A DNA stretch of 64,000 nt from a virus (IMGVR_UViG_3300012827_000001:1-64000), one strand, 5' to 3'; numbered from the stretch's first letter, positions 1,486-54,600 are shown. Made by a program: numbers and translations. Notes: a model not told the origin generated them from the letters alone.

Positions 1486-1754
1486 GCCTCATCCTCGCTA
1501 TCGAGCTCCAGTGCGCGGGAGGCAACCCACGCGAAGCTCTTGTCCTCGGCCACCACCAGGTTGTCCTGTCGTCTGTCGATGGCGAGCCACCAGGTCCTCA
1601 GGCCCCCGGATAGGTCCTTTCGGACCCACACGTTTCCGGAGGGGGTCTGGTAGCCGCCGCCATCGGCAGGGTGCAACCCGTTCCGGCCGACTCGCCTCCT
1701 CGGCGATTCCTGCGCTAGCACGTTTCGCGTCACGCTTTCGGGGTTCACTTCCAC
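1482..1754 (-). CDS. Hypothetical protein (start uncertain)
   Basis: Fills the gap in the leftward operon; ATGA overlap with xis. Confidence 0.5.
   Translation of the reverse strand: MEVNPESVTRNVLAQESPRRRVGRNGLHPADGGGYQTPSGNVWVRKDLSGGLRTWWLAIDRRQDNLVVAEDKSFAWVASRALELDSEDEA
1705..1726. promoter_or_regulatory. Dispersed palindrome copy (GATTCCTGC GCTA GCACGTTTC)
   Basis: Matches the 22-bp motif found elsewhere in the window. Confidence 0.7.
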
Positions 1755-1987
1755 CCTCTCTCTCGGGCCAGGTTGGTCACAGCCTCCACGATAGGGGCTG
1801 TGTTGATGTCAGGCGCCACCTCGGCGACGGCCTCTTCGATCTGCTGCCTCAGGTCCTTGGGTCGCTTCAGCGAGGAGGCCCGCCGGAGAACCGGGATGGC
1901 AACTTCTTCCATCTCCACGTCTCCGGCGGGCCTCTTGCTGCCGACCTGGACCAGCCAGGACTCAGCCACTTCGCTCCTCTCGGTCAT
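1745..1987 (-). CDS. Hypothetical protein
   Basis: GGAAAAGG RBS before ATG1987 (MTERSEV); C-terminal part of track ORF 1745..2440. Confidence 0.6.
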   Translation of the reverse strand: MTERSEVAESWLVQVGSKRPAGDVEMEEVAIPVLRRASSLKRPKDLRQQIEEAVAEVAPDINTAPIVEAVTNLARERGWK

Positions 1988-2465
1988 GTGCCTTTTCCAG
2001 TGCTTCCTGGCGCGCTTTTGCGAGTTCACCGGCGAGCCATCGGTCGAACTGGGCCTTGATGCCCGGTCGCAGGCCCGGGATTGGCCAGTCGATGTCGCGG
2101 AGAAGTTTCTCCATCTCTGGATCTGGCGTCCGCTTGGCGTAGGAAGCGCATGCCGCCCCGAAGGCCATGTTGTTGCGCACCTGCTCTGTGGTTGGGGTGT
2201 AGCCGGTCCCGATTCCAGGCGCCTTGAGCGCCTCAGCCACCGCTTGGGCCTTGTCGAGCCGCCGTAGCATCGCATTGATGAGGATGGGACCGTCGTCGTA
2301 GCACTCCAAGAAGAAGGGGTGCTTGACGATGGTGCGCCATGCTGTGATTCGCTCGTCCTCGGGCGAGTTACGGGAGCAGCGAGGGTTGCCTTCGCAGGTG
2401 CAGTCGTACCCGCCACCCCAGATGGGCGGGCACTTCCCACAGCACTGGACCGGTCGGCCAGTCAT
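1962..2465 (-). CDS. Hypothetical protein with Cys-rich N-terminus
   Basis: GAGGAG RBS; CCGKC...CTCEGNPRC; coupled to the upstream stop. Confidence 0.65.
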   Translation of the reverse strand: MTGRPVQCCGKCPPIWGGGYDCTCEGNPRCSRNSPEDERITAWRTIVKHPFFLECYDDGPILINAMLRRLDKAQAVAEALKAPGIGTGYTPTTEQVRNNMAFGAACASYAKRTPDPEMEKLLRDIDWPIPGLRPGIKAQFDRWLAGELAKARQEALEKAHDREERSG

Positions 2466-2746
2466 GACTGCGCTCCTCGTGCGGCCTGCCACCCGGCGAC
2501 AAAGCCGCTCACGCGGGCGCCCCGCAGGCTGGGCTCGAAGCCATTTTCCGCAAGTTTGTCGGCATAGGCGATGGCCGCGAGCCGACTGTCTTCGTTGTCC
2601 TTGGACTTCTGCAGCCTCAGCGTCAGTGCGTCCGTGCGAGCGTCCCAGCCCGCGTCGAAGCCGCGCGAGTACCCGCGCTGCTCTGCCAATTCCTGCAGGC
2701 GCTTCATGGCGGCGGTGAGGTCATCGGGGTCCAGGTCGTCAGTCAC
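2462..2746 (-). CDS. Hypothetical protein
   Basis: GGGAGG RBS; typical codon usage. Confidence 0.65.
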   Translation of the reverse strand: MTDDLDPDDLTAAMKRLQELAEQRGYSRGFDAGWDARTDALTLRLQKSKDNEDSRLAAIAYADKLAENGFEPSLRGARVSGFVAGWQAARGAQS

Positions 2747-8533: not shown

Positions 8534-9693
8534 CAGAACGAGCCCGGCTCGGTGGAGTCGATCCCCAGCAGCGCCAGACCCTCCCGGCGGATCTGTCCGG
8601 TCATGCGCTTCACCTTTGTGAGCGTCGGGGAGTCGGGCGACTTCTTGAGGAGCTCGGCCACCTTCTTGTCGACCTTGCCAGCCTTACCGTTCGCCTCGGT
8701 GATGAAGGCTGCAAGGTTCGCGCCCGCCTCACCCTTGCGCGCTGCGATCTGCTCTAGCAGCTCCTGGACCGAGTCCAGCAGCTCCAGTGCCTCCTCCTCG
8801 ACGGGGGAGGCGACCGAGAGGATGGTCCGCTCGACCTTCTTCTTCTGGGCGAGGTCCTCCCACAGCGTGTAGCGCAGTGCACGCAGGTCGTCGACCTCTG
8901 CGATGAGGCGGTCCGCGAGGAACGCGGAGGCCCGCACCACGGACATGCTGGCTCGCCAGCGTCGGTCGGAGACCGTGATCCCCTCCTTGCGCAGCGCGCG
9001 CCGGATCTCCAGGACCCCGTCGAGGACGTTGTCCGGGACGATGACCTGCGCCACCTGGGTCACGGCCTCGTTGAGGTCGTCGTAGGTGAGGGTCGTGCCG
9101 ACGCCGTCACGGTTGGGGCGCTCCATGAGCTCCTTGAAGTGCGCGTCCGACGACAGGTAGTCCACCGTGGAGCGAACCAGGAACCGGTCCCACAGCGCCG
9201 CTGCGTCCTCCGACTCGCCTGCGGGGTGCTCGTTCGACGCAGCGAAGATGCTGTGCAGCGGGATCGGGTGCGCGGATCGCCCGTCCACCACCTCGTGCTT
9301 GAGGCGCTCGTTCGCCGCCGCGAGGAGGTCGTGCCCCAGGGTCGGGGACATCTTCCCGGCCTCGTCCAGGAACGCGAAGTGCGCCGTGGTGAGGAAGCCA
9401 GCGTCCTTGCGCCGAAACTCGCCCTTCTCGGACAGTAGGGGCAGATCGTAGGGGCCGAGCACGGCCTGATCGGGTCGGTTCTTGGACAGGAGCTGCTCGA
9501 AGTAGGCGGCCCCTGTGATGCGGGACGAGAAGTCCCGGACGATCTCGGACTTCGCCGTGCCGGGGGGGCCCAGAATGAACGCGTGCTGCCGGGTCAGTGC
9601 AGCGAACAGCATGCCGTCGATGACGTCCTCACGCTCGTAGAACGCCTCGTTCAGCTCAGCGCGGATCCTCCCGAGCGTCGTTGCGGTGCTCAT
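8533..9693 (-). CDS. MoxR-family AAA+ ATPase (RavA-like)
   Basis: YEREDVI, LGPPGTAKS (Walker A), FLDEAGK (Walker B), ASNE, ALWDRF; TGATG-coupled to the VWA gene. Confidence 0.9.
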   Translation of the reverse strand: MSTATTLGRIRAELNEAFYEREDVIDGMLFAALTRQHAFILGPPGTAKSEIVRDFSSRITGAAYFEQLLSKNRPDQAVLGPYDLPLLSEKGEFRRKDAGFLTTAHFAFLDEAGKMSPTLGHDLLAAANERLKHEVVDGRSAHPIPLHSIFAASNEHPAGESEDAAALWDRFLVRSTVDYLSSDAHFKELMERPNRDGVGTTLTYDDLNEAVTQVAQVIVPDNVLDGVLEIRRALRKEGITVSDRRWRASMSVVRASAFLADRLIAEVDDLRALRYTLWEDLAQKKKVERTILSVASPVEEEALELLDSVQELLEQIAARKGEAGANLAAFITEANGKAGKVDKKVAELLKKSPDSPTLTKVKRMTGQIRREGLALLGIDSTEPGSF

Positions 9694-18717: not shown

Positions 18718-18969
18718 TCAGGAGTGGGTGCTGCCGTAGGTCTCCGCCCTGAGGTGGGCCCAGACCAGGAGGTCCGGCAAGTTCTTGCCGGGGGTTGCGT
18801 GGCGCCCATGCTTGGCGGCCGCGTCGAAGCGGCGCCTGGCCTCGGCGAGCGGGAAGTCGATGTCGTCGTCGTCGTAGGCGGCGACGTAGCCGTGGGCGTT
18901 GACGCCCGCGTCGCCCGGGGCGCGGAACCAGCGCGGGTCGTCGTACGCGGCGTGCTTCGGGACACGCAT
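18718..18969 (-). CDS. Hypothetical protein
   Basis: CAGGAG RBS before ATG18969. Confidence 0.6.
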   Translation of the reverse strand: MRVPKHAAYDDPRWFRAPGDAGVNAHGYVAAYDDDDIDFPLAEARRRFDAAAKHGRHATPGKNLPDLLVWAHLRAETYGSTHS

Positions 18970-18994: not shown

Positions 18995-19024
18995 ACGCGA
19001 TTCCTGCTAGCGCAGGAATCGCGT
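18995..19024. promoter_or_regulatory. Best copy of the dispersed palindrome (ACGCGATTCCTGC TAGC GCAGGAATCGCGT)
   Basis: 13-bp perfect arms with a 4-nt centre, about 25 bp upstream of ATG18969. Confidence 0.85.
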
Positions 19025-19131
19025 GAGGGAAGGCGGGGTTGTCCGACCCGACCCCCTGCCTGAAGGTGGCAGGGACGCACCAGGCCAAACGGCTGTTTAG
19101 AGTCGCCTGGTCGACTGTCTGAAGGGTGTGG

Positions 19132-20269: not shown

Positions 20270-21637
20270 CTAGGCGCCGATAGCGGCGTCTCGTGCGACG
20301 TCGGCTGCGAGTGCGGCCTCGCGTGCCGCGCGGTACGCGATCACCGCAGCGCGCTCGTCGGGCGTCGCGCGTCCGGCGGGCGCCCGCCCGGCCGTGCGGG
20401 CTGCGCGTCCGGCCGCGCGGGCGTCGGCCAGGCGACCGTAGGCGTCGGCCTCGCGACGCCACGCGGCGAGCGCGTCACGGATGGCGTCGCGGACGACGTA
20501 CTCACGCTGCCCGCCGTCCGGACGGCCCACCGGCACGTCCGTAGGTCCGCCGATGAATCCGTCGTGCAACGGCCCGTGGTCGCGCGTGACCGTGGGCATC
20601 GGCGCGGCACTCTCACCCGCCAGCCGCTCACGGTCACGGTAGACGCCGACACCACCACCGGCGCGGACACCGGCACCGGGCGCGCCCGACATCGCGCCCG
20701 ACCGCCCCTTGGCGCCCGTGTTGGCACGCGGCCCGCGCGGCGCCGACACCGTGCCCGCGACCCCCTTGACGTCGGTCCGCATGATGCCCCGCATGTCCGC
20801 GCCCGACAATGCGCCCGTGACCGCGCGGATCATCTCGACCCGGTCGGCGTCGCCCTGCCACCCGTAGCGACGGATCGTCGCGCCACCGTCAATGAGTACC
20901 GATGCCACACGCCGGTATGCCGTACGCCCGGACGGGTCCGAGACGATCCTCCCGGCGTCGTGAGCGCGGGACACGATGTCGTCCCGGCACGCCGCCCACA
21001 TGTGCAGCGCGTCACGCACCCGCTGGCCGCGCGTGTCCCGATCCGTCGTGTCCGCGTGCGGCAGCAGGGTCCCCGTGGCAGGCATGCCGCCGCGCCCGAT
21101 CGGGCAGTACGTCGCCCACACGGCCAGCCGGTACGCGGCCACGTCCCGCCGCGCGAGCGCCGCCCACGCCAGCGCGTCCACGTCCGCGTAGTGCACGACG
21201 ACATCCGTCGTGCCCGTGCCCACGATGCCGCCCGCGCTATCCGGCGCCGACGGCAGATCACCCGTCATCTGCGCACGCTCCACACCACGGGACCGCAGCG
21301 TCCTTCCCTCCCACATGACGGCCTGCCGTGCCGCCGACGTGTCCGCCGACATGTCCGCACCGCGCGCCAGCAGATTCACGACGATGTCCTGCGACACATC
21401 GTCCGCCGTGAGCCCCGGCACGCCCGACGCCACCCGGTACGCCGTACGCCGCACGTACGTGTACAGGTCCGCCGACAGTCCCGCCGGTGCCACCGTGCAC
21501 GTACCGTCGTCCGACCCCACCACTCGCGCCGACGCGTGCGCCCGGGCCATCGCCCGCCGCATGCCCGTCGTCCCGTTGTCCGCCTGCCGCGTCGCCTCGC
21601 GTGCCGCCGCGTCGGCGGTCACCACTGTTCCACGCAT
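20270..21637 (-). CDS. Very GC-rich 455-aa protein with a sigma-70 region-2-like segment
   Basis: GGAAGGA RBS; own terminator; LYTYVRRTAYRVA...ADDVSQDIVVNLL resembles ECF sigma region 2; remainder unrecognised. Confidence 0.55.
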   Translation of the reverse strand: MRGTVVTADAAAREATRQADNGTTGMRRAMARAHASARVVGSDDGTCTVAPAGLSADLYTYVRRTAYRVASGVPGLTADDVSQDIVVNLLARGADMSADTSAARQAVMWEGRTLRSRGVERAQMTGDLPSAPDSAGGIVGTGTTDVVVHYADVDALAWAALARRDVAAYRLAVWATYCPIGRGGMPATGTLLPHADTTDRDTRGQRVRDALHMWAACRDDIVSRAHDAGRIVSDPSGRTAYRRVASVLIDGGATIRRYGWQGDADRVEMIRAVTGALSGADMRGIMRTDVKGVAGTVSAPRGPRANTGAKGRSGAMSGAPGAGVRAGGGVGVYRDRERLAGESAAPMPTVTRDHGPLHDGFIGGPTDVPVGRPDGGQREYVVRDAIRDALAAWRREADAYGRLADARAAGRAARTAGRAPAGRATPDERAAVIAYRAAREAALAADVARDAAIGA

Positions 21638-22315: not shown

Positions 22316-22337
22316 GATTCCTGCGCTAGCAGTAATC
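22316..22337. promoter_or_regulatory. Dispersed palindrome copy
   Basis: GATTCCTGC GCTA GCAGTAATC, upstream of lsr2. Confidence 0.8.
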
Positions 22338-22594
22338 GTGGAGGGTTGCCCGTTCAGCCAGGGTTGACGGATGGTGGGTGGCGTTGGGTGCACGAGCGCC
22401 TCATGGCAGGCCAAGGAGTCAACGCCTCATCTCCGGCGAAGGCACATGCTAGGTCGGGCCCCTGGCCTGGCCGGAGGGTTCCTTTCCCCTCCTCAGGGAG
22501 TGACCTGCTCCGCGGCCAACGAGAGCCTCTCCGGGCTGTACGCCGGGGGGGCTTTCGTTTACCCTGGGGCCCTTCCCTCACGAAAGGAGATGTC

Positions 22595-22948
22595 ATGGCG
22601 ACGAGGGTCATCAAGCTGCTGACCGACGACCTCACTGGAGAGGAGGGTGCGACGACGTACCAGTTCTCTCTCGGGACCGCGAGCTACGAGATCGATCTGG
22701 CCGATGGTGGTGTAGAGCTGAGGAAGGCGCTGGAGCCGTTCATCGCTGCCGGCCGCCGGTCGTCGGCGGCGGCACGGTTCCGCCGGTCGGAGCCGGCGCC
22801 GGATCGCACGGAGTACCTCGCGAAGCTGCGGGCCTGGGCGAAGGATGCCGGGATCCACGTCAGTGCTCGGGGCCGTGTGCCGCGGGAGGTCGAGGAGAAG
22901 TACGAGGCTCACCTTCGCGAGCCGGTGAAGGCCGGCAAGCGCAAGTAG
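22595..22948 (+). CDS. lsr2: Lsr2-family nucleoid-associated protein
   Basis: LTDDLTG...FSLGTASYEIDL...LRKALEPFIAAGR; C-terminal LRAWAKDAGIHVSARGRVP (RGR AT-hook). Confidence 0.93.
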   Translation: MATRVIKLLTDDLTGEEGATTYQFSLGTASYEIDLADGGVELRKALEPFIAAGRRSSAAARFRRSEPAPDRTEYLAKLRAWAKDAGIHVSARGRVPREVEEKYEAHLREPVKAGKRK

Positions 22949-23259: not shown

Positions 23260-23289
23260 CCGCGATTCCTGCTAGCGCACGAATCGCGG
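23260..23289. promoter_or_regulatory. Dispersed palindrome copy
   Basis: CCGCGATTCCTGC TAGC GCACGAATCGCGG, about 50 bp before ATG23342. Confidence 0.8.
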
Positions 23290-23341: not shown

Positions 23342-23626
23342 ATGAAGGAGCCACGGTTCGAGCCGACGTGGGGTGAGCGACTGTTCAGTCGGTTGCCGCG
23401 GAGCTTTGGCTGGATCCATTTCGCCACCCGTGAGGACTTTGAGCGCGGCGATGGGTCGACGTTCGTGCGCAAGGCGTACGTGGTGCCGGTCTTCGAGAAC
23501 GAGTCGTCGCTCATCATGTTCCCTGGCATGTACATCCCCGGAACGAAGACGTTCGTGGAGTACATGAATCTGGATGCCCTGACGGAGATCATCGAAGAGG
23601 AGTGGGATGTCGACGGAGAGGATTGA
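23342..23626 (+). CDS. Hypothetical protein
   Basis: ORF overlapping the sigma gene start. Confidence 0.6.
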   Translation: MKEPRFEPTWGERLFSRLPRSFGWIHFATREDFERGDGSTFVRKAYVVPVFENESSLIMFPGMYIPGTKTFVEYMNLDALTEIIEEEWDVDGED

Positions 23627-25113: not shown

Positions 25114-25167
25114 CGCGTCGAGTGCGATGAGCAGGATCGGCGAGGGGGACGCGATGGAGCTCACGGC

Positions 25168-27576: not shown

Positions 27577-27600
27577 TGTTTGCTCGCTAGGCAAGCCAGA

Positions 27601-27641
27601 TCGACCCCCTCATCCTGGGTAGGCGCCCGGGTGAGGGGGTC
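27601..27641 (+). terminator. Hairpin after the holin
   Basis: TCGACCCCCTCA...TGAGGGGGTCGA. Confidence 0.6.
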
Positions 27642-27663
27642 GATTGCTGCTAGCGCAGGAATC
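27642..27663. promoter_or_regulatory. Dispersed palindrome copy
   Basis: GATTGCTGC TAGC GCAGGAATC, 25 bp before GTG27689. Confidence 0.8.
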
Positions 27664-32287: not shown

Positions 32288-32323
32288 CCGACGCGATTCC
32301 TGCTAGCGCACAGATCGCGTCGG
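32288..32323. promoter_or_regulatory. Dispersed palindrome copy with extended arms
   Basis: CCGACGCGATTCCTGC TAGC GCACAGATCGCGTCGG. Confidence 0.8.
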
Positions 32324-32425: not shown

Positions 32426-32447
32426 GATACCTGCTAGCGCAGGAATC
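32426..32447. promoter_or_regulatory. Dispersed palindrome copy
   Basis: GATACCTGC TAGC GCAGGAATC. Confidence 0.8.
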
Positions 32448-32455: not shown

Positions 32456-32485
32456 TTGACAGAGTCTCTGATGGACAACCACGAT
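32456..32485 (+). promoter_or_regulatory. Possible SigA-type promoter
   Basis: TTGACA-18 bp-CACGAT upstream of the HTH gene. Confidence 0.4.
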
Positions 32486-32595: not shown

Positions 32596-32844
32596 ATGCC
32601 CACAGCGACTGCGACCGATGGTCGAGCGGACCGTACGTACATCCGAGCCTGGACTCCCGCAGAGTGGCGCGAGGCATCGGCCCGGGGCGGCCGGCAGTCC
32701 GGAGTGACGCAGAGGGCCAAGTGGCAGCCTCAGCGGGAGGAAGCGTTGCGCCTGGTGGCCCACGGCACCCACCCGGAGGATGCGGCGCGAGCAGTCGGAG
32801 TCTCGCGGCGCACTGTGTCACGCTGGATCAAGGCTGCTCACTGA
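32596..32844 (+). CDS. Small HTH protein
   Basis: THPEDAARAVGVSRRTVSRWIK; GAGGAG RBS. Confidence 0.8.
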   Translation: MPTATATDGRADRTYIRAWTPAEWREASARGGRQSGVTQRAKWQPQREEALRLVAHGTHPEDAARAVGVSRRTVSRWIKAAH

Positions 32845-33716
32845 TGGCAGCCCGCTTCCGTCACCCCACGGGGGCCCAGTTGCCGCCAAGCAGCACGCTG
32901 CGTGGCGCCCGAGCCCAGGTGCCGGTTGCTGCAGCGGCCCGGCCGGAGCGGCAGGTTGCTCCAGCGATCAAGGTGGCGCCGGTGAAGATGGATGCCTGGT
33001 TCGAGGGCGCGGTGGGTTACGCGGCCGACAAGCTGCTGTCGCCCCTGGCTCGTGACTGGATGAATCTGAGCCTGGCGAATCAGGACATCGTGGTGGTGTT
33101 GTGGGAGCCGTTGGCGGATGCGCCGCAGGTGTGGTCGTCGTCGGAGTATCTGGATGCGCTGCGGCGGCGGGCGAATCCTCTGACGAGGATGCAGGGGCTT
33201 GTGCCTGGGGTTGCCTACACGTTCATCCTGGGCGACTTGGTAGTCCCGGAGGATGGCCCTGCGGTGACGACCCTGCAGTCGGGTGTGGAGTTCATCGACA
33301 CCGTCCTGCGCAGCGAGGAGGGGGATCCGTCTGGTGGCATGACTCGCTGGGCGTCGCGACTCATCATCCCAGGCAGGGTCACTAGCCGGCCGCGGACGTT
33401 GGCCTACTACAGGGGCCTTGCGAAGGTGGTTGGCCGCGGCGGCCCTGAGCATGAGAAGACTTTCCTGCAGGTGATCTCTCGGTGGAGCGCAGCGATCGAT
33501 GAGGTTGAGGCGGCTGCTGAGATGGCCGGCTTGTCCCACCCCGGCAGCAGCATCTCGCCGGAGATGGAGAAGCGCGCGCGGGGGTGGGTGCTTCAGGACG
33601 TGCTGACGACGGGGTCCATCCAGCAGCTGGCGGCGTATTCGCAGGCGGCGACCCGCGAGTTGGCAGCAGCGAAGGTCGCGCGAGACCAGGCGGTGGCGGC
33701 CTACCTCGGGGACTGA
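32844..33716 (+). CDS. Hypothetical protein
   Basis: TGATG coupling; long ORF. Confidence 0.7.
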   Translation: MAARFRHPTGAQLPPSSTLRGARAQVPVAAAARPERQVAPAIKVAPVKMDAWFEGAVGYAADKLLSPLARDWMNLSLANQDIVVVLWEPLADAPQVWSSSEYLDALRRRANPLTRMQGLVPGVAYTFILGDLVVPEDGPAVTTLQSGVEFIDTVLRSEEGDPSGGMTRWASRLIIPGRVTSRPRTLAYYRGLAKVVGRGGPEHEKTFLQVISRWSAAIDEVEAAAEMAGLSHPGSSISPEMEKRARGWVLQDVLTTGSIQQLAAYSQAATRELAAAKVARDQAVAAYLGD

Positions 33717-33719: not shown

Positions 33720-33741
33720 GATTTGTGCTAGCGCAGGAATC
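33720..33741. promoter_or_regulatory. Dispersed palindrome copy
   Basis: GATTTGTGC TAGC GCAGGAATC in the intergenic gap before 33786. Confidence 0.8.
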
Positions 33742-33785: not shown

Positions 33786-34514
33786 ATGGGTGGACGGGGC
33801 AGCGGGCGTAGGCCGCACGCGGAGACGTTGCAGAATCGCATCGAGGCTGCGCGCGAGGATGCGCAGGGCGTTGAGGTCAAGGAGTTCTCCGAGCCGATCG
33901 AGGTGCCGCCGTGCATCGTGAAGCAGCCGACAGGGTCGGAGATCACGGTCCAGGGCGAGGCCGAGGAGAAGTTTTACGCCCAGCAGCGCGACAAGTACGT
34001 CAACGAGTTCAAGTTCGAGTCGTCGGCTGACCTTGCTGACCTTGACGCCCTTCTCATGCATGAGTTGTTGGACTACCGGTACACCACCCAGCTCGCGTCG
34101 GGCAAGGCGTACGACGGTCGCCTCCTGGTGTACGGGGAGGAGGACCAGCTCCGGCAGAACAAGCTCGCTGAGGCGAAGGTCATCGCTGACCTGAAGAAGC
34201 AGCTCGGCATCTCAAGAGCCTCTCGGGACGGCACACAGAGTGATGTCTACGCCTACATTCAGAATCTTCTGAAGCGAGGGCGCGAATTCGGGGCCTACCG
34301 GAACGATCAGATCTACCGCGCGATCGTCCTCGCCAATGAGTTGACTTCGATCGTAGGGACGTTCGACCGCTCGAACGAGAACGAGCGACGCATCGTCGGC
34401 TACGAGACAGAAGCCGACATCGTCAACTGGGTGCGCGAGAAGTTCATCCCGCAATTTCGTGAAGTCGACGAGGCCTTTCAGCAGGGCCAGAAGTCATGGG
34501 TGGGGCAGCTGTGA
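33786..34514 (+). CDS. Hypothetical protein, candidate terminase small subunit
   Basis: Helical, charged; two genes upstream of the large terminase. Confidence 0.5.
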   Translation: MGGRGSGRRPHAETLQNRIEAAREDAQGVEVKEFSEPIEVPPCIVKQPTGSEITVQGEAEEKFYAQQRDKYVNEFKFESSADLADLDALLMHELLDYRYTTQLASGKAYDGRLLVYGEEDQLRQNKLAEAKVIADLKKQLGISRASRDGTQSDVYAYIQNLLKRGREFGAYRNDQIYRAIVLANELTSIVGTFDRSNENERRIVGYETEADIVNWVREKFIPQFREVDEAFQQGQKSWVGQL

Positions 34515-35086
34515 GCGCGGTCGACTGGGCTGCCGAGTTCAGCAACTTTCCCCCAGCCTTCCACAGGCTTCTGGCCGACCTTCTGGCGGAGATCGAGGCC
34601 GAGCGAGCCCGAGAGCAGGGCGTCAAGCTCGCGGGCGGCAGGAGGGCTCAGCAGCCGTCAGGGTCCATGCAGGACGTCGTGGACGTGGTCTACCCGCGGC
34701 GTTCGCAGAAGCCGTTCAGGGAGGCTCTGGCTGAGGCGACGGATCAGCCGCCGGCCACGGTCGCCGCCTTGGCTGGCATGAATCCGGGGACCATGTTCAG
34801 GCTGCGCAATGGACGCCGCCCGCTGACCAAGGACACCCTTGAGCAGATCGCTAGGGCCATTCACGTTGATCCGGGCTACTTCCATGAGTACCGGGTTCTG
34901 GTGGTTCATGAGGCGATCGATGCGCTGCTGACCCCGCTCCGCTCCCTGCAGGCGTACAGCTCGGTAGAGCGTGATCATCGTCGCAATCCGCGGCCCAAGA
35001 CGCCGAACGCACCGAACGGCTTCAGCACCACTGCGCGGGGAGTGCTTGCATATCCGACAAAGCAGGGTCGAGAGGCTGCAGAGTGA
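34511..35086 (+). CDS. XRE-like HTH protein
   Basis: TVAALAGMNPGTMFRLRNGRR..TKDTLEQIARAIHVDPGYF. Confidence 0.75.
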   Translation: MSAVDWAAEFSNFPPAFHRLLADLLAEIEAERAREQGVKLAGGRRAQQPSGSMQDVVDVVYPRRSQKPFREALAEATDQPPATVAALAGMNPGTMFRLRNGRRPLTKDTLEQIARAIHVDPGYFHEYRVLVVHEAIDALLTPLRSLQAYSSVERDHRRNPRPKTPNAPNGFSTTARGVLAYPTKQGREAAE

Positions 35087-36714
35087 CCGCTCTCGCCAAC
35101 CTCAGCCAGGAAGAGCTCTACCTCTGGGGGATCCTGAACGACCCCACCGGCGTGGACATCTATGAGTTCATCGGCGTGAACAATGAAGGCGACGGCCCTG
35201 AGCCAGCACGCCTGTGGGACTTCCAGTGGCCGTGGATGCATGCAGACGGCAAGTACCAGATCTCAGCAACCAGCCGGCAGCTGGGCAAGAGTTGGTCCGT
35301 GGCGTGGCGTGCGATGGCGTTCGCGTTTCAGGCCCCGCGTCAGGAGATGCTGTTCGTCGCGCCTCAGCAGGATCACCTTGATCTGTTGATGGCGAAGGTG
35401 GAGGAGGCATTCGACGCATACCGCCTGATGCGAGAGATGCGAGCTGCGGGGCCCACGGCAGGACTCAAGCGGGCCCCGCACTGGCAGCTTTCGCTGAAGA
35501 ACGGTGCCGTGATGATCACGCGCCTCGGGTCCAACCCGAACAGCGTCAAGGGACCGCACCCTGTGCGCATTGAGGTCGACGAGGTCCAGGACATCCCTGT
35601 CGCGACCTACATGGAGATGGTGGAGACCATCAAGACCCACGCCCCGGGCATGAAGTGGTGGATGCACGGCGTGACAAAGGGCGTCGGGCAGGACCTTCAT
35701 TATCGGCTGACGCAGAAGAAGAATCATGCCGAGGAGATCGAGGGCCCCGACTGGCGGGTTCACCACTACATCGCCGCGCACCGTCCCACATGGAACGATG
35801 AAGAGCGCGAAACCAAGATCCGCCAGTACGGCAGTGACGAGAACCATCCTGACTATCAGCGCAACGTCCTTGGGCTGCCAGCCGATGCGGGCAACTCGCT
35901 GTTCGTCATGGCGCGACTCATGGCCTGCGTGCGTCAGCGAGAGTCCGAGTGGGCTCTGGAGTACAACGAGCAGGTCTACACCAGGATCAAGATCGCTGAC
36001 AGTCTAGTTGCGCGCGTCAGTTCGATCGAGGCGCTGGTGGACATTCCTGTGTCGCACCTGCGTGATGAGTACATCTCTTACTGGGGTGGGGCTGACATCG
36101 GCTTCACCAATGACCCCACCGAGATCCTCATCTTCGGCACTACGAAGGCTGGCGTGGACCGCCTACTGACGCGCGTCCAGCTCGTGCGCGTCTCAGCCAA
36201 GGATCAGGTGGCCGTTATCCGGCATCTGTTCTCTGTGTACGGAGCGAAGTTGCGTCGGTTCGGCATGGACCGCACGGGCGTGGGCCTCCCGCTGTTCCAG
36301 GAGTTGCAGGAGGTCAAGGAGATCGCCGAGCGAGTGGCGGGCTACAACTTCAGCGAGAACCGGGCCGTTGGGTTTGAGGACAGGGAAATGAAGGCTGGGG
36401 AGAAGCAAGAAGACCTGGTCATCAAGCGAAACATCAAAGATTACGCCACGGACATTCTTCGCAAGTGGGTTGACCAGAAGAAGCTGGAGCTGCCACGAGA
36501 CGAAGAGCTGCTGCAGGAGTGGGGCGGGGCGACTTCGTACATCGTCAAGACCGCACCAGACCAGGACGGCGTGAAGCGAAAGTACGGCTCTGGCGCCCTC
36601 CACACCCTTGACGGCGCGCGCATGTACGCGGCAGCCAAGGACCTCATGGCCATCGAGGAGATCCTCAACGCTACCCCGAAGCAGGCTCCGGTGCTTGATC
36701 GGTTCGTCTTCTGA
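35083..36714 (+). CDS. terL: Terminase large subunit
   Basis: SRQLGKS (Walker A), IEVDE (Walker B), nuclease WGGADIGFTNDPT, GMDRTGVG, HTLDGARM. Confidence 0.9.
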   Translation: MTALANLSQEELYLWGILNDPTGVDIYEFIGVNNEGDGPEPARLWDFQWPWMHADGKYQISATSRQLGKSWSVAWRAMAFAFQAPRQEMLFVAPQQDHLDLLMAKVEEAFDAYRLMREMRAAGPTAGLKRAPHWQLSLKNGAVMITRLGSNPNSVKGPHPVRIEVDEVQDIPVATYMEMVETIKTHAPGMKWWMHGVTKGVGQDLHYRLTQKKNHAEEIEGPDWRVHHYIAAHRPTWNDEERETKIRQYGSDENHPDYQRNVLGLPADAGNSLFVMARLMACVRQRESEWALEYNEQVYTRIKIADSLVARVSSIEALVDIPVSHLRDEYISYWGGADIGFTNDPTEILIFGTTKAGVDRLLTRVQLVRVSAKDQVAVIRHLFSVYGAKLRRFGMDRTGVGLPLFQELQEVKEIAERVAGYNFSENRAVGFEDREMKAGEKQEDLVIKRNIKDYATDILRKWVDQKKLELPRDEELLQEWGGATSYIVKTAPDQDGVKRKYGSGALHTLDGARMYAAAKDLMAIEEILNATPKQAPVLDRFVF

Positions 36715-36780
36715 CGTTCGTTTCGCTTCGTTCTGGCTTCGTCGGCACGTTCTGTGCGCTGAGGTTCGAGTGGTAGTTGC

Positions 36781-38873: not shown

Positions 38874-39691
38874 CAAGCTCGGTGGCGGATCTCCGGAACC
38901 AGTTCCGTGCGCAGTACGCCCGGCCGCGTGCAGTGCGTGCTGCCGCGATTCCTGCTGTAGCAGAAACCGCGCCGGAGGATCTGGCGTTCGCGCTGGAGGC
39001 CGAGGGTCGCGTCATCGTGTCGACGCCGGTCGAGGCTGCCGTGGAGGCCGCGTCGAAGTGGACCCTGGACTTCCGGGGTCGCCTCGTCGAGGCGGAGTCG
39101 GCCAACCTGAACGGCGCGTTCTGGACGCAGAAGGACCTGGAGTTCGGTCTGCCGACCGTTGCGCACGGCCCGTTGAACTGGGGTCATGACGCGAAGGAGA
39201 TCGTCGGCGCCCTGGTGGACCCGGTGATGGTGTCTGCCGAGCAGGCGGCGAACCAGAACGCGGGACCTCACATCCAGACCGGTGCTCGCTTCTGGTCCTA
39301 CCTCAACCCTGAGCGCGCGAACATGCTGCGCAAGTACATCGATGAGGGTCGTGCCTGGTTCTCGATGGAGTGCGTCGCGGAGAAGATCGAGTGCCGCGGG
39401 CCCAACGGGTGCGGTCAGGTCATGGAGTACGCGGACGCCGCGAATCGCACCGAGCGGGCCTGTGAGCACGTGCGTGAGCGTTCGTCGTACCGCCGGTTCG
39501 TCAACCCCGTGTTCCAGGGGGCCGCGGTCATCGTCCCCCCGCAGCGACCCGGGTGGTCGAACGCCAACATCACCGGCCTCGTCCAGAGTGCTGAGCGGCA
39601 GCTTGAGGCTGCCGACCTGAACGTGGACGGCCTGTCCGATGGGGACGCCGTCGCAATGGTCGCTGCGATCCTGCAGTGGGCCAAGCGCTGA
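38870..39691 (+). CDS. Probable capsid maturation protease-like head protein
   Basis: Position after the portal; NLNGAFW...WGH...FSMEC pattern. Confidence 0.55.
   Translation: MTSSVADLRNQFRAQYARPRAVRAAAIPAVAETAPEDLAFALEAEGRVIVSTPVEAAVEAASKWTLDFRGRLVEAESANLNGAFWTQKDLEFGLPTVAHGPLNWGHDAKEIVGALVDPVMVSAEQAANQNAGPHIQTGARFWSYLNPERANMLRKYIDEGRAWFSMECVAEKIECRGPNGCGQVMEYADAANRTERACEHVRERSSYRRFVNPVFQGAAVIVPPQRPGWSNANITGLVQSAERQLEAADLNVDGLSDGDAVAMVAAILQWAKR
38947..38968. promoter_or_regulatory. Intragenic degenerate palindrome copy
   Basis: GATTCCTGC TGTA GCAGAAACC. Confidence 0.5.
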
Positions 39692-45184: not shown

Positions 45185-45682
45185 ATGACAGACGTCAGCG
45201 ACCTGGTGGGCGCCTACAAGCGCGAGGTGTCTGCCCTTGGTGATTTCGACGCGGCGTTCCCGAATGCCACCGATGCGGCGATCACCGGGCTCCTGATGGA
45301 CGCGTTCGGTGAGGCTCAGCTCGACGGGTTCTTCCAGACGATGACGCTGGACGTGGACCTGGAAGCCGTCACTCCGGATCTGTCGGCGGCGGGTGCGGCC
45401 CTTGTGGTTCTGTACGCCGGCATCAAGACCCTCCGCAACCAGATCCTCACCGCGGGCGCAGAGTCGCGCTACAAGGCTGGCCCGGTGGAGTACCTGACGA
45501 AGCAGAACTCGTACGCGCAGACCGAGCTGTTGAAGCAGCTTGAGCGTCGCCGTGACGGGCTCATCGAGCAGGCGCGGTACGGCCGGGGGACCCCGGTGTA
45601 CCAGATGGATGCGTACTCTGCGCGGGGCCTGGCCGCTATCGGCGGCTTCGCGTCCTATGAGACGGCCCTCGGGGGCTGGTGA
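45185..45682 (+). CDS. Head-tail adaptor-like protein
   Basis: Position; ESRYKAGPVEY pattern. Confidence 0.55.
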   Translation: MTDVSDLVGAYKREVSALGDFDAAFPNATDAAITGLLMDAFGEAQLDGFFQTMTLDVDLEAVTPDLSAAGAALVVLYAGIKTLRNQILTAGAESRYKAGPVEYLTKQNSYAQTELLKQLERRRDGLIEQARYGRGTPVYQMDAYSARGLAAIGGFASYETALGGW

Positions 45683-46140
45683 TGGCCACGGCGATTTCCG
45701 GCTTCGACGCCGCCGCCGTCCGCGAGGGGTTCCGCCTGCCGATGCGGATGGCGCTCCCGAATGACCCTGAGCGCCGCCCTGAGTTCGTGCGCGAGGAGAT
45801 TCCTGCGGGCGCAGGAATCGACGACGACGGCATCCCGCTGGATCCTACCCAGGAGGTGGACCCGGTCGAGCCGATCCGGAGCCGGGTCCTGTGCGCCATC
45901 GAGTGGCTGCGCCCCGGCCAGGAGGAGCAGAACTTCACGACGACGAGCCCGGCCGCTCTGCGCATCACGCTTCTCGATGAGGAGTACGAGCAGGTCGAGG
46001 GTTTCGACTACGTGAACATCTGGGCCAGCGCCACGGATGACAAGCCGGTGCGGTTCTACTTCCGCAGGATCTTCCAGCAGGTCAACCTCGACACGGTCGG
46101 GGTTTGGACCATTGAGGTGTCTACGGAGGATGCACAGTGA
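45682..46140 (+). CDS. Head-tail connector region protein
   Basis: Coupled; position. Confidence 0.55.
   Translation: MATAISGFDAAAVREGFRLPMRMALPNDPERRPEFVREEIPAGAGIDDDGIPLDPTQEVDPVEPIRSRVLCAIEWLRPGQEEQNFTTTSPAALRITLLDEEYEQVEGFDYVNIWASATDDKPVRFYFRRIFQQVNLDTVGVWTIEVSTEDAQ
45798..45819. promoter_or_regulatory. Intragenic palindrome copy
   Basis: GATTCCTGC GGGC GCAGGAATC, both arms perfect. Confidence 0.7.
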
Positions 46141-47434: not shown

Positions 47435-48195
47435 TGGCCACCCCGCCGCGGTTGATCCGGCGGATCCCGATCTCCGACACGGGCTTGTTCCTGACGGTGT
47501 GGGTGCGATCCACCTCGAACAGCGGTGTGTTCGGCGCTTTGAACGAGCGGGCGTCAGCCGACCAGTGGCCGCGGATCTTGGCGTTCCTGTCGCGCTACTA
47601 CGAGGCGATGGCGAACGAGATTAACGACCTTGCGGTGTCGGAGTTCGAGAAGACCCGCCGGCGGGGGTGGGTTGCGACGAACCGTCTGAAGGCAGCGCTG
47701 ACGGATGAGCGGAACATGTTCATCCCGGGGTCGAAGGACGCGCTCTACGTGGGCGTGCCGGGGTTCCTTGACAACTCGCAGGCCAAGTACTGGCGCCAGA
47801 TCGAGGAGGGCTCGCGGGTTCACGTCGGCCGTCTCATCCACGGCGTCTGGGGGTCGAAGCTGTCAGGCGGGTGGGCACAGGGACGCACGGGACGTTACGC
47901 CCTAGCGTCGTCCCCGTACTCGCCGCACGGCAAGGGGTCGGGGCAGAAGTTCCAACCCCTGTCGACGATGGAGGGCACGCTCTCCGAGGTCAGGCGCAAG
48001 CACCCGGGGATGTCGACCGAGGCGCGCATCGGCAGGGCCATCCCGAAGTCGGACTACTACACGAAGGCGTGGGAGCAGTTCCGGCGCACGAACCGGCCGC
48101 TGCAGCTGCTCCGTGCAGCGTTCACGCAGCAGTTCGGGCTGAAGGCTCCGACGTCATACGAGGGCCTCATGAACGGCATCCTTGACAACACCTAG
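47434..48195 (+). CDS. Putative tail component (neck/gp10-like)
   Basis: YWRQIEEGSRV pattern; position before the tail tube. Confidence 0.45.
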   Translation: MATPPRLIRRIPISDTGLFLTVWVRSTSNSGVFGALNERASADQWPRILAFLSRYYEAMANEINDLAVSEFEKTRRRGWVATNRLKAALTDERNMFIPGSKDALYVGVPGFLDNSQAKYWRQIEEGSRVHVGRLIHGVWGSKLSGGWAQGRTGRYALASSPYSPHGKGSGQKFQPLSTMEGTLSEVRRKHPGMSTEARIGRAIPKSDYYTKAWEQFRRTNRPLQLLRAAFTQQFGLKAPTSYEGLMNGILDNT

Positions 48196-48801: not shown

Positions 48802-48942
48802 GTGCTCATGGTGCCTCTGGCGGCGCACGAGGTCCAGGTCCAGCGATTCCTGCGCCCGCAGAGATGTTGGCACTGTCGAGTGATGCCTCTGATGGGGCCA
48901 CTAGACGCTGCGCCCCTTGGACTCATCTAGGAGGGCGATCTA

Positions 48943-50445
48943 GTGGCGATCAAGGCCGGATCCATGATTACCGCCGGGAACGGCCAGGCGCTCATCGAGC
49001 GTCTGCAGTCCGGCGGCCCTGGGACGCTGAACATCCCCAAGGAGAAGATCTACGAGCTCGGCAACTACGAGTCGGTTGCGACCGTCTACGACACGCCCGA
49101 GCTGACGTTCACACTGGAGTCGTTCGACGTCTCCACGGACACCGAGCAGATGCTCGTGGACGCGACCACGGCTGATGTGCTGACGAACGGCATCGACCTG
49201 GCTGCCGCCAAGTCGCTCAACATCGCGCAGAACTTCAAGCCGGGCAAGAAGCTCGCGAACCCGTACGTTGCGGCGAACGGTGTCGCGATCCCGGCGCTGA
49301 TGATCGAGAGCGCTTCGTACCGTTTTGGTCTGCGCGAGAACGCGACCGAGACGTTCACACTGCGCGGCGACTCGATCTACTACTGCCCCGGCGCGGTGTA
49401 CGTCGACCAGTACACGGGTACGAACACGCCCGGCCAGACGGTCGTCACGACGCACCCGGGCTACCCGTACACGGACTCGAACGGCACGCGGCGCATTCTG
49501 GCCGTGACGGTTGGGACGAAGCGACTCACCGAGGGCCCTGACTTCACGGTGACCTACGGCACCATCACCGCTGACGCGGCCATCGCGACGGTGACGGTGA
49601 CTGAGGCGGTCCCGGTGACCGACACGATTCGCGTGATGTACCACTCGCCGGACACGATCACGTACCCGCAGGAGATCCACACTCCGGCGACGCTGAAGCC
49701 GGCGGCCGTCAAGGGCAAGGACATCGACATCTACGTCGGTGGCTATGACCCGGAGGACCCGGCGGCCTCGGCGGCGAACAAGCTCACGGGTGTCCAGGAT
49801 GTGACGCTGGAGTGGCGGGTGACGCAGGAGGAAGAGCGCGAGTTCGGCAACCCGAACGCAGTCTCGCGTGACTTCGACGTCCCGACGGTGAACGGCACGA
49901 TCGGGATCCTTCCGCGTGACGTCCCGGACCTGTACTCGAAGCTCCGCAAGATCACGGGTGTCTCCTCGACGACGGCTGCGATCGGCCCGGACCTGGCGGC
50001 ACTGCTTCCGCTGGACATCATCATCAAGGACGCGGAGTCCGGTGGGACCACGCTCAAGCGGTTCCACGTGCCGGACGTTCGGTTCTCTCTGCCTGGTTAC
50101 GCCCCGCGAGTCGAGCAGAACGTCACGCTGTCGCTGGAGTGGGAGTCCGACACGGGCGCCCTGACCATCCACCGCGACCTGGGCGACCCGGTCGTGACGG
50201 GTCTTGACCCGGCGACCGACGACGAGGCCGGCGGTGCGGAGGTCGTCATCACGGGTGCGAACTTTGTCGGCGTGACGGCTGTGGCGTTCGGTGCGGTCCC
50301 GGCGACGTCGTACACGGTGGACAACCACCGCCAGATCACGGCCATCGCCCCGGCGGGCACGGGCACGGTCGACGTCACCGTGACGACCGCGGCCGGCACC
50401 TCGGTCGCGAGCGACGACTCGGAGTTCGTCTACACCGACGACTGA
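48943..50445 (+). CDS. Major tail tube protein with C-terminal IPT/TIG Ig domain
   Basis: GGAGGG RBS; PVVTGLDP...GGAEVVITGANF...VAFG...ITAIAPAG. Confidence 0.85.
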   Translation: MAIKAGSMITAGNGQALIERLQSGGPGTLNIPKEKIYELGNYESVATVYDTPELTFTLESFDVSTDTEQMLVDATTADVLTNGIDLAAAKSLNIAQNFKPGKKLANPYVAANGVAIPALMIESASYRFGLRENATETFTLRGDSIYYCPGAVYVDQYTGTNTPGQTVVTTHPGYPYTDSNGTRRILAVTVGTKRLTEGPDFTVTYGTITADAAIATVTVTEAVPVTDTIRVMYHSPDTITYPQEIHTPATLKPAAVKGKDIDIYVGGYDPEDPAASAANKLTGVQDVTLEWRVTQEEEREFGNPNAVSRDFDVPTVNGTIGILPRDVPDLYSKLRKITGVSSTTAAIGPDLAALLPLDIIIKDAESGGTTLKRFHVPDVRFSLPGYAPRVEQNVTLSLEWESDTGALTIHRDLGDPVVTGLDPATDDEAGGAEVVITGANFVGVTAVAFGAVPATSYTVDNHRQITAIAPAGTGTVDVTVTTAAGTSVASDDSEFVYTDD

Positions 50446-51403: not shown

Positions 51404-51645
51404 CGAAGGCCGGCTGGGACCTTATCGAGGCGGTCACCGCGGCGATGGGGGTGCTTGGCTGGTTCGAGCTCCCTGAGGACGAGTTGCCGCCGGAGAAGTA
51501 CTGGCATTCCACCGAGTTGGTGGAGGAGTGGTTCGAGGCCGTAAAGCGTCGCAGGCAGGACCGCGCCAAGGGTATCGAGTCGATCGAGATGCCTGAGGGT
51601 GAGGACGACTACGTGGATGACGAGGTCGCTGCTCTGCGTGGCTGA
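51400..51645 (+). CDS. Tail assembly chaperone frameshift extension (T-like)
   Basis: In the -1 frame relative to the chaperone. Confidence 0.8.
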   Translation: MTKAGWDLIEAVTAAMGVLGWFELPEDELPPEKYWHSTELVEEWFEAVKRRRQDRAKGIESIEMPEGEDDYVDDEVAALRG

Positions 51646-51665
51646 CGGGGAACGGGGGTGGCATC

Positions 51666-54600
51666 TTGGCTGAGGCTGAAGACGTCTACAAGGTCGGAAT
51701 CGAGTACCAGGGCGGCGCCGCCGTCAACAGTTTCGGCACCGACATGGACAAGGTCCAGCTCTCCGTTCAGGAGATGTTGGCCGGCCTCGGCAATTTGGGC
51801 GTCGACCAGAACCTTCTTCGGCGCAACGCCCAGCGTGCTGTCAACACTCTCAACACCGAGCTCAACCGGGCGATGGCGAGCGCCCAGAACCACGGCGGCG
51901 CCCAGCTTCCGGCGAACCTGGGTAGCCGGTTCGCGATGGCCGCAGGCATTCCGGAGCGCAACAACCGGCAGTTCGCCACGATGGCGTCGGCGGCGGAGCG
52001 GTACGCCCAGTCCATCATCCGCGCCGCGACGACGACGACGAACGCTTTCGGGCAGCGAACCCAGATGGATCCGCTGCGGCCGTTCCGCGAGGGGATCGTC
52101 CAGGCCGACCTGCAGACTGGACGGCTGAGCCGTTCCATTTCCGAGCTTCAGGCGAAGCAGGTCGCTCTCTCCCGGGTGCGCACCCCGCTGGAGAAGGACG
52201 TCAACACCCTCTCGCGGGCGAACCTTCAGCCGGAGACGAAGCAGATCCTGGCGCGGTCGTGGTCGGCTTCTGTCGCACCCGAGATCGCACGCGTTACGCC
52301 TCCGCGCCCGGCGCCGCAGCTCGATTCGGATGCTTTCCGGCTGGATGTCGCTCGCGCCCTGGCGGCCCCGCGGTCAGACGCAGAGCGCGCGATGGGTGCC
52401 ACCTGGCCCCGTCAGCGGGCCCAGGATGTTGCGGGCTCCTTCGGGTTCGAGAACACGCAGCAGCTCAATGCGTTTGCCCGCGCGAACCAGGACGTCGTTG
52501 TCGCGGCTCGCGAGGAGGTGCGGGCCCGCCAGGCGGCCATCGCGGCACTTCATGCCGAGCAGCGCGCCAGGGCGACCGTGCAGCCGGGACGCTACTACCA
52601 GGGTGGCGGGCGGACCGGTGCGGCATGGGACTTTTCGCTTGACCCGTCGGCGGCCGACCGGCAGAACTTTGCATTCGGGTCGTACCAGGCGAACATGCCT
52701 GCTTCGCTGCGTGCGACGAGCCAGGCTATCCGTGAGGGTCAGCGTCTGGCGCTGGACGACTTCTCCAAGAGCCTTCCCCGCGGAGAGTCTGTTCGCCTCG
52801 GCTCCGCAAGCGCCGGCCGCATGCAGCAGGCATACGCCTTCGGGAGTTACCGGGAGAACATCGAGTACAGCCGACTCCTGCGTCAGGCTGGTGCTGACAC
52901 CCCGGTCCTGAATGGTCTTGTTCGCTCGGGCGACTCTGTCCGCCTTGGCTCCACGCGTGCCGCACGCATGGAGCAGCAGTACAACTATGGCGGCTACCGG
53001 GAGAACATCGCGGCAGCCAGGGCCGCTCGGCGGGTTCCCTTCCGTGAGTCGTTCATGACCGGGTGGGGCTCGTCGGACGAGAAGCCGTTCGGGCAGATGG
53101 TGGGCCAGACGGCCCGCATCTCCCTGTTCTACGGTGTTGCGTATCGCGCACTCTCGACGCTGCAGCAGGTCCTCTCCGAGACTGTTACTGAGACCCTCGC
53201 CTACGAGGACGCACTCACCAACCTGAACCTGGTGACGAACCGGAGTCGGGAGTCGTCCGCTGCTCTGGCGTCGACGCTGACCGACATTGCTGCTAGCGCA
53301 GGTTTCACGTCATCGCAGGGTGTCGAGCTCGGGGCTCGCGCCGTGGGCCTGTACGGTGTCGCGTCCGCCGACGCGGCGACGCAGGAGCGCGCGATCGAGG
53401 TGTCGGCGCAGGTTGCAACCCGCATGGCCCGAGTCTCCGGCGGCGACCCGATCGCCACGCAGACCCAGCTCGCCGGCGCTCTGCGCTCGCTGGGCTGGGG
53501 GATCGAGCGACTCCCCGAGCTTGAGGACACGATCTCCTACCTGTCCCGCCAGACGGGCCAGTCGCCGGCGGAGCTCCTCGGGGCGTTCTCGAACGTCCAG
53601 ACCTTGGCCTCGCAGGGCGGGTTCACCCCGCAGCAGACGGCTGCCATCCTCGCGCAGGTCGCGACGACGACGGGCCAGAACCCTGAGGCCACGGCGGGCC
53701 AGTTCCGCCAGCTCTTCTCCCGTGGCGCTGACACGATCGCCCCTCGCGCGAGTGAGATCACCGGCGTCGACATGACGGGGATGGATCTCCAGCAGATCTT
53801 CGCCACGGTCTCCCAGCTCAACCTGTCTGCCAACCAGCTCAACCAGTTCGCGTCGCTCTTCGGCAAGGGCGGGTCTCAGCAGGTCGCCACCATCCTCACT
53901 CAGCAGTACGGGGCCGTCCAGGGCCTGGTGACGGGCGCAGAGGGCGCCCAGGGCTTCGGTCAGGACGCTTTCGACCGTGTGATGGAGTCCATCGGGAACC
54001 GTCTGCGCGTCCTCGGGTCGACGGCCGCTGAGTTCAGCGTCAACCTCGTCGAGACGGGCATCCTTGACTGGTTCGCCCTGGTGGTGGTGGCGGCGCAGAA
54101 CCTCGTCGACATCGGCAACAACGTCCTGGAGCTCTTCAACTCGCTGCCTCGCCCGCTGCGGGCTGTGGCGCTGGCCCTGGGCGAGGTGTACGCGGCTGCG
54201 TTGATCGCACAGCGCATGGGTTGGACGACTGCAGGGGCTCACGCCGCCGAGGGCTTGGCCCGGCCCTGGACAAGGGCTGCGACTCGTGTCCTGGCGGCCC
54301 CTGGGCAGATCTGGCGGGGCCTGAACGAGCCGATGACACGCGCTGGCGCGGTCCAGTTGCGGGGGCAGATCGGTGAGGCCCTGCGTGGGGTGCTCGCTGC
54401 TGGGGGCCCCCTGAAGCTCCCTGCGGGTCAGGTGCAGTCCGGTGTGCTTGGGCGCGTGCCCGGCCTGGGCCGACTGACGGGTCTGGGCACCTTGGGCGCT
54501 GTCGGCCTTGCGGCGGCCGGGGTGTATGGGGTTGGTACCGCGATCGGCAACACGATGCGCGGCGACACCTTGGTGCAGGAGGCACGGAATGCCTCTCTCG

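Follow-up and report, generated by a model that had tools for sequence, protein, structure and literature searches.

The stretch analysed here, IMGVR_UViG_3300012827_000001:1-64000 (64,000 nucleotides (nt) at its full length, henceforth the window), opens a virus record of 83,979 bp in IMG/VR, and the whole genome (G000) was also analysed. The subject is a 22-bp palindrome, GATTCCTGC-N4-GCAGGAATC, that recurs throughout this genome. G000 has a 48-bp terminal overlap and 66% G+C, and belongs to an uncultured temperate soil phage of actinobacteria. We called 141 genes using a codon-usage model. The genes from ~1285 to 21870 are leftward and nearly all others are rightward. The presence of both an integrase and an excisionase shows that the phage is temperate, and its host was placed within the Actinomycetota based on Lsr2, WhiB, PG_binding_1 and composition. 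The genome also encodes an amidase endolysin, collagen-like fibre proteins, WhiB, a primase/helicase, Sak4, an exonuclease and a methyltransferase. The landmark genes are as follows (HTH, helix-turn-helix; TerL, large terminase).

198-1307, rightward: tyrosine integrase (protein scan)
1285-1485, leftward: HTH_17 excisionase (protein scan)
22595-22948: Lsr2 (protein scan)
23607-24368: sigma-like protein, whose operon or gene region is listed as 23342-24368
31426-32250, leftward: double-HTH protein
32596-32844, rightward: small HTH protein
34496-35086, rightward: XRE-HTH protein, overlapping the TerL start
35083-36714: TerL

The 22-bp palindrome and its distribution

The palindrome has 12 copies in the window and 17 in the genome. 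Eight positions in the window match it with at most two mismatches and 11 with at most three, against a mean of 0.00-0.02 in shuffled sequences. A first-pass annotation, made from the window alone, had listed 11 coordinates; every one carries the motif, and the site at 48845 had been missed. It also proposed completing the list with a weight matrix. Our matrix was trained solely on the sites of related phages, and 30 Markov shuffles served as the null. It recovered exactly the 17 sites, at 19.6-34.8 bits, whereas the highest score in the shuffles was 16.2 bits. The sites are as follows (ORF, open reading frame).

1705-1726: three mismatches, centre GCTA, 28.7 bits; close to the 5' end of a small leftward ORF; the excisionase gene lies ~220 nt downstream of the site
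18999-19020: perfect, 13-bp arms, 34.8 bits; after a terminator-like hairpin and 29 nt upstream of leftward gene 18718-18969
22316-22337: one mismatch; where the left arm and the Lsr2 gene diverge, with TTGCCC (22346-22351) beginning 8 nt on
23264-23285: one mismatch, 13-bp arms; upstream of the operon of the sigma-like gene (23342-24368)
27642-27663: one mismatch; a GC-rich hairpin immediately precedes it and gene 27689-28090 begins 25 nt on
32295-32316: three mismatches, arms of 16 bp with mismatches; upstream of the leftward double-HTH gene 31426-32250
32426-32447: one mismatch; ends 8 nt upstream of TTGACA (32456-32461), a -35-like hexamer of rightward gene 32596-32844
33720-33741: two mismatches; 3 nt past the stop of 32919-33716 and 44 nt before the start of 33786-34514
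38947-38968: two mismatches; intragenic, 65 nt into gene 38882-39691
45798-45819: perfect; intragenic, in a variable stretch of gene 45682-46140
48845-48866: three mismatches; 8 nt separate its end from the late-promoter-like GTCGAGTG (48875-48882) that precedes gene 48943-50445
53285-53306: the weakest, four mismatches, 19.6 bits, yet retaining the invariant TGC-TAGC-GCA; inside the tape-measure gene
64295 and 64322 (genome, past the window): tandem sites at the early promoter divergent from gene 63941-64192
70873, 76286 and 81353 (genome, past the window): the remaining three sites

According to the gene calls, seven of the window sites are intergenic and five (1705, 38947, 45798, 48845 and 53285) lie inside ORFs, in agreement with the seven-to-four split reported earlier for the 11 sites then known. 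Genome-wide, 11 of the 17 sites are intergenic although intergenic sequence makes up 7.9% of the genome (binomial p = 6e-9). The four central bases are TAGC or GCTA in 11 sites and TGTA, GGGC/GCCC or TGGC elsewhere. As the first-pass annotation had stated, the orientation of the centre is independent of the direction of transcription, and it is flipped even between orthologous sites: the centre at 33720 is TAGC, and that of its counterpart in the relative G001 is GCTA. CTAG is five-fold under-represented in the genome (53 observed, ~265 expected), and 12 of the 15 genomic copies of GCTAGC fall in motif centres.

We asked how the two arms vary by aligning 35 sites from three genomes and imposing a 12-bp stem; the control consisted of shuffling the 3' letters among sites. 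Stem cells were paired in 73.3% of cases, compared with 74.2% in the shuffles, and covariation and double changes were no higher than in the control. TGC and GCA never vary, the outer GAT/ATC hardly ever, and deviations are mostly confined to one arm. Because the arms deviate independently and without compensatory changes, the alignment identifies the element as a double-stranded DNA site for a symmetric protein and not a hairpin. A two-fold symmetric site whose half-sites are conserved independently of pairing is what XRE/Cro-cI-type operators look like. The marks of an intrinsic terminator or a structured RNA, a U-tract and base-pair covariation, were both missing, and no T-runs were found at the sites. 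A separate strong hairpin lies directly beside several sites. Strong GC-rich hairpins of this kind are found at 27590-27641 and 19040-19080, and in G001 at 9020-9052 and 48160-48195, and a recurrent order is a terminator, then a site, then a ribosome-binding site. A tRNA-Leu(CAA) gene (genome 70795-70868, L012:6795-6868) ends 4 nt before the site at 70873; this site is kept in the relatives G001 and G002, where the tRNA gene is not present.

On the genomes sampled, the palindrome is not a host repeat. Searches for exact copies whose centre was TAGC, GCTA or another K-M-K-M sequence returned two single, unrelated chance matches in 185,579 species genomes and no matches in other IMG/VR records. 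Among 401 Actinomycetes genomes, 27 contain one or two matches with at most two mismatches, and no TAGC or GCTA centre occurs among the matches listed. Four Cellulomonas genomes and one Corynebacteriaceae genome (2.9-4.1 Mb) contain 0-4 matches with at most three mismatches; Cellulomonas was chosen because the last 22 nt of the probable phage attachment site (attP) core match this genus among others. This core, at window positions 25-50 next to the integrase gene, resembles a tRNA 3' end on the minus strand and is accompanied by arm-type repeats GTGACACG at 68, 163 and 174 and at genome positions 83901 and 83912. The 27-nt core has no exact match, and its last 22 nt match tRNA genes of many Cellulomonas, some Corynebacterium and also proteobacteria, so that the match to Cellulomonas is a weak hint of the host. 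In none of the genomes sampled did the palindrome reach a frequency comparable with that in the phage. The first-pass annotation had named an equal frequency in the host chromosome as the sign of a host repeat, and the word is essentially absent from the 401 actinobacterial genomes.

Conserved positions and promoter geometry

A megablast search against GenBank phages found no close relatives, and single-protein scans of IMG/VR found none either. Relatives were reached through TerL homologues: an alignment scan with TerL returned 13 loci, a scan of genome contigs with TerL found no prophage, and G001 and the other relatives were compared with G000. The TerL proteins of several relatives (P0012, P0014, P0028, P0035 and P0081) are 820-900 amino acids long and contain Hint and LAGLIDADG domains, and thus carry inteins inside the terminase.

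The site family occurs at matching positions in five related phages or fragments whose TerL is 51-66% identical to that of G000. G001 (TerL 63%) is a complete provirus in a 440-kb contig and has 11 sites with at most three mismatches; the reversed-pattern control gave 0. The fragments L011, G003 and G006 (TerL 63, 61 and 51%) carry the core TTCCTGC-N4-GCAGGAA, with changed outer bases in G003. G002 (TerL 66%) has the variant word GATTTSCGC-TAGC-GCG..ATC. The motif was not found in G004, G005, G008, G009 or G010.

Many of these positions are held closely. At the early promoter TTGCGY-N19-TAGAGT that precedes the replication genes, the proximal site lies 8-9 nt upstream of the -35 element in G000, G001, G002 and G003, and three of these four have a second site 27 bp further upstream. 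A site precedes the start of the 33786 gene by 43-45 nt in six genomes and the primase gene by 12-14 nt in three, and in three genomes a site lies at the 3' end of the WhiB gene. Two further sites hold their positions: the one ahead of the sigma-like operon in G001 and G002, and the one ahead of the double-HTH gene in G001 and G003. The site after the terminator that follows the capsid gene does so too. For the homologues of 41328 and 48943, a site precedes the late GTCGAGTG element by 8-32 nt; the 48845 position is kept in G002, G003 and G006, with 11-24 nt to GTCGAGTG.

Two intragenic sites keep the palindrome where the protein sequence varies. At the 38947 position, G001 has a site at the identical offset even though the protein differs there. 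At the 45798 position, L011 and G002 carry versions of their own and G004 has a different palindrome, GTTGCGG-N3-CCGCAAC, at the same codons. This belongs to a second family, GTTGCGG-N3-5-CCGCAAC, which in G002 and G004 also stands in place of the motif ahead of the 27689 homologue. G002 bears both families. Copies of the second family, including one inside the homologue of gene 45682-46140, are as follows.

G002: 4258, 10836, 12152 and 39328
G004: 8925, 19119 and 29484
Further loci: L031-L033 and L036-L037

Because the second family replaces the motif at the same positions, the comparison indicates that the lineage keeps its regulatory points and exchanges the word written there. The first-pass annotation had proposed that a lack of conservation in relatives would count against an operator network; the sites do occur at orthologous positions.

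The distance to promoters is also constrained. The trinucleotide TTG starts exactly 8 nt after the site in eight flanks and in at most three at any other offset; examples are TTGACA at 32456 and TTGCCC at 22346. At early promoters, which have spacers of 18-19 nt, the centre of the site is near -56. As judged from this spacing, it is an activator-type position, or one suited to blocking upstream contacts, and leaves the core promoter uncovered. The distance is variable at late promoters, where the site would span roughly -32 to -56, and because of this variation occlusion fits better than precise activation. Beside ribosome-binding sites no promoter could fit, and a protein bound to a site there could act on the passing polymerase alone. 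The suggestion in the first-pass annotation that the bound protein roadblocks elongation is plausible at these last sites, while the sites at early promoters, upstream of the -35 element, are not in the position of a classical repressor.

The late element GTCGAGTG occurs in rightward intergenic gaps of the structural region at 25117, 41266, 45169, 48875 and 50490, with TCGAGTG at 36766, and it precedes the homologous genes in G001, G002, G003 and G006. Its probable role is that of a -10-like late-promoter element read by the phage sigma-like protein 23607-24368. A scan for the sigma-70 consensus at default stringency gave no matches. We also tried reading GGAAT as an extracytoplasmic function (ECF)-type promoter element and rejected this, as inspection of the flanks showed no consistent -10 element. 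Downstream of the early promoter, a leader GGACAGCGGGYCAGG at genome position 64409 (67798 in G001 and 32798 in G003) is conserved in three genomes and may be an element of the 5' untranslated region.

Candidate binding proteins

We scanned 79 proteins against Pfam and PHROG, leaving about 60 small proteins unscanned. No canonical repressor was found among the 79, consistent with the earlier remark that no canonical CI is visible. Nor was there a ParB match among them, and the GxRR box of ParB is absent from all conserved G000 proteins. Two candidates were retained.

34496-35086, rightward: best candidate, 196 amino acids, XRE/Cro-type HTH core (Pfam HTH_3)
63941-64192, leftward: second, weak candidate, 83 amino acids; its 3' part, 63941-64000, is in the window

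The confident part of an AlphaFold2 (AF2) model of the 34496-35086 protein, its core, matches C.AhdI, ClgR, 434 Cro and lambda cI in a fold search. The protein is 51-67% identical in all six motif-bearing genomes. Its homologues in G004, G005 and G010, where TerL is 46-57% identical, are 32-36% identical and tail-less: a basic, Pro-rich C-terminal tail of ~30 amino acids (NPRPK..PNAP.GF-like) is found in this family only in motif-carrying genomes. A metagenome scan with the protein returned seven loci, of which two small contigs (L177 and L180) contain a scorable site. Both are of the G003 type: they agree with it in the recognition helix and in the outer-base variant of the site. The neighbouring 33786 gene matches only viral hypothetical proteins in the ESM Atlas, with YonG_C in 26% of one cluster.

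The 83-amino-acid gene was detected by tblastn solely in motif-bearing genomes. A hidden Markov model (HMM) search finds a weak homologue in G004, and this tiny family also matches repeat domains of large proteins. Its AF2 model (predicted local distance difference test score, pLDDT, 72) has no PDB match.

Four other proteins were rejected. The double-HTH protein 31426-32250 is 20-25% identical among the genomes that share the motif and is present in G004, which lacks it. Neither the HTH protein 32596-32844 nor the 455-amino-acid protein 20270-21637 has a homologue in the motif-sharing relatives. Lsr2 (22595-22948), which binds AT-rich DNA non-specifically, has a homologue in the motif-lacking G010. 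Thus, of the four candidates put forward by the first-pass annotation, the HTH protein it placed at 34511 (34496-35086) tracks the motif and the other three, at 31426, 32596 and 20270, fail on the distribution or divergence of their homologues. The distribution of the 34496-35086 protein, its tail and its fold make it a possible binder, and we name it tentatively.

Readings of the network and comparison with known systems

The explanation that we lean towards, by a modest preference, is that the 22-bp palindromes are operators of one two-fold symmetric dimeric regulator, most likely encoded by the phage, which would tie transcription together across the genome. The first-pass annotation held that one dimeric protein controls both arms; a symmetric, conserved network of sites does extend over both arms, and that a protein binds it, which protein this is and whether it activates or represses are what we infer. 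The sites fall into three classes. Sites of class (a) lie at a fixed 8-9 nt upstream of the -35 element of host-type early promoters, often two of them 27 bp apart, where the regulator may act from an activator-type position. Those of class (b), 8-32 nt upstream of the late GTCGAGTG, would place the bound protein over the -35 region. In class (c), directly after terminators or stop codons and before the next ribosome-binding site, or inside a few genes, the protein could only block passing polymerase. Elsewhere than at early promoters, the regulator would silence or partition transcription units, by occluding late promoters and by forming roadblocks at boundaries, much like the regulators of other phages whose operators are dispersed. 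A narrower version, which we regard as doubtful, makes the XRE protein of the 34496-35086 type, encoded between the YonG-like gene and TerL, the genome-wide regulator, with each phage writing the palindrome that its own version reads at a fixed set of points, which comprises early and late promoters, unit boundaries and two places within structural genes.

Several observations weigh against an operator network of this kind or against the candidate. The conserved centre GCTAGC is asymmetric, 1 bp off the dyad axis, and is unexplained by a simple homodimer. The early-promoter sites are upstream of the -35 element and not where classical repressors bind. The recognition helix of the 34496-35086 protein differs among relatives that share the motif (TMFRLRNG, TLHGLMNG and NLFRLVNG), so that specificity does not map cleanly onto this protein. 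Its stop codon overlaps the TerL start; it may therefore be a packaging protein and would be hard to express alone in a lysogen. Finally, G000 and G001 have the motif in common but carry unrelated integration modules, and the binder is therefore not a classical integrase-linked repressor.

The sites might instead be bound by a recruited transcription factor of the host, in which case the motif would follow the host and not the phage genes. The presence of the motif indeed departs from the TerL phylogeny (G006, at 51%, has it, and G004 at 50% and G010 at 57% do not), G000 and G001 share it without sharing integration or accessory modules, and no phage protein shows a clean correlation with specificity. 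We nevertheless judge a host factor unlikely. If the sites belonged to a regulon of the host, several good ones should be present in its chromosome, and no actinobacterial genome in the 401-genome set has more than two loose matches, with neither TAGC nor GCTA at the centre of any match listed; specificity borne by the phage also fits better with different palindrome families at the same points and with both families in G002. The overlap of the best candidate gene with the TerL start could also suggest that the sites are docking points for a packaging or partition protein, with the HTH protein as small terminase or with a ParB/KorB-like clamp. This is a rather improbable reading: the fixed 8-9 nt spacing to the -35 element and the association with late promoters indicate transcription, the sites do not cluster around the terminase genes, the fold search brought up transcription regulators but not a small terminase, and neither the GxRR box (in conserved proteins) nor a ParB match (in the 79 scanned proteins) was found.

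The palindromes could act as RNA or single-stranded DNA hairpins, as terminators without a U-tract, processing sites or stabilizers of mRNA. Perfect copies would form stems of 9-13 bp, and the sites at 33720, 70873, 76286 and 27642 follow stop codons or precede ribosome-binding sites. We consider this very improbable given the independent deviations of the arms, with no compensatory variation, and because many sites have two or three unpaired mismatches in 9 bp. The lack of T-runs and the separate strong hairpins beside several sites also argue against it, as do the loop orientation, which is untied to transcription, and the sites that lie upstream of promoters and are untranscribed. Near-identical copies, conserved even at the centre, could reflect the recent spread of a selfish or recombination-borne repeat, similar to repetitive extragenic palindromic (REP) elements or miniature inverted-repeat transposable elements (MITEs), without a regulatory role. 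That a repeat of this kind should occupy orthologous positions in genomes 50-66% identical in TerL, at fixed spacings to promoters and start codons and with intragenic copies embedded in frame, is hardly credible, and no transposase-like partner turned up among the proteins scanned.

We compared the operator network with known multi-site systems. The stoperators of Cluster A mycobacteriophages, read by L5 gp71 or the TipsytheTRex repressor, are asymmetric 13-14-mers, recognized by a monomer and oriented with transcription (PMC9283540, PMC6550527). In Cluster A, dozens of copies of one operator are scattered across the genome of a temperate actinophage; there as in G000 most of them occupy short intergenic gaps (11 of 17 sites in G000), some are at early promoters and within operons, and the word diverges between related phages. 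Unlike stoperators, the G000 element is a dyad of 22-28 bp with both arms conserved to the same consensus, its orientation is irrelevant, with the centre flipped between orthologous sites, and its early-promoter site is upstream of the -35 element and not over it. The Pfam and PHROG scans found no gp71-like repressor, although no direct gp71 homology search was made. The G000 network works like a stoperator system but lacks the asymmetry and orientation that define one.

The phiC31 conserved inverted repeats (CIRs) are reportedly 17 bp long and bound by nested isoforms of a large repressor. By that account they resemble the G000 sites as a palindromic operator repeated at many loci of a temperate actinophage; unlike in phiC31, no gene for a large repressor with nested isoforms was found in G000. 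ClgR is an XRE-type activator of actinobacteria; what it binds upstream of promoters is an imperfect palindrome of 18 bp with the core CGC-N5-GCG (PMC3613350). The HTH fold of our candidate is like that of ClgR (PDB 3f51/3f52), and a GC core, here TGC-N4-GCA, likewise lies upstream of a promoter. Unlike ClgR, which is a host regulator of protease genes with few sites, the candidate is a phage protein with additional N- and C-terminal parts, and the two are 14-21% identical.

KorB has 12 OB operators on plasmid RK2, and the operators of P1 C1 are asymmetric. As with KorB and P1 C1, the G000 sites include classes beside the -35 element, further off and far from any promoter, but unlike KorB no ParB-type protein was found in the G000 scans. 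A 17-bp palindrome of Cluster O mycobacteriophages is said to be dispersed and intergenic, with its binder unidentified. It would be similar as a dispersed intergenic dyad repeat of an actinophage; it differs in sequence and in lineage, and promoter geometry and the exchange of palindrome families are documented here. In kind the network is a familiar one, and its form is new.

A handful of model phages (L5, phiC31 and P1) have provided what is known of multi-site operator networks, and little has been established about how frequent these are in uncultured phages or how their specificity evolves. The lineage of G000 allows a clean comparison, in which regulatory points are kept and the operator word changes, even within coding sequence. 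In an 84-kb actinophage that otherwise has no annotation, the sites also delimit the transcription units. If the XRE protein is the regulator, an immunity-like specificity system would be built into the packaging operon, unlinked from the integrase module. Once identified, the binder and its operator would add an orthogonal repressor or activator to those available for high-GC hosts, and immunity in phages without a recognizable cI might find an explanation in it.

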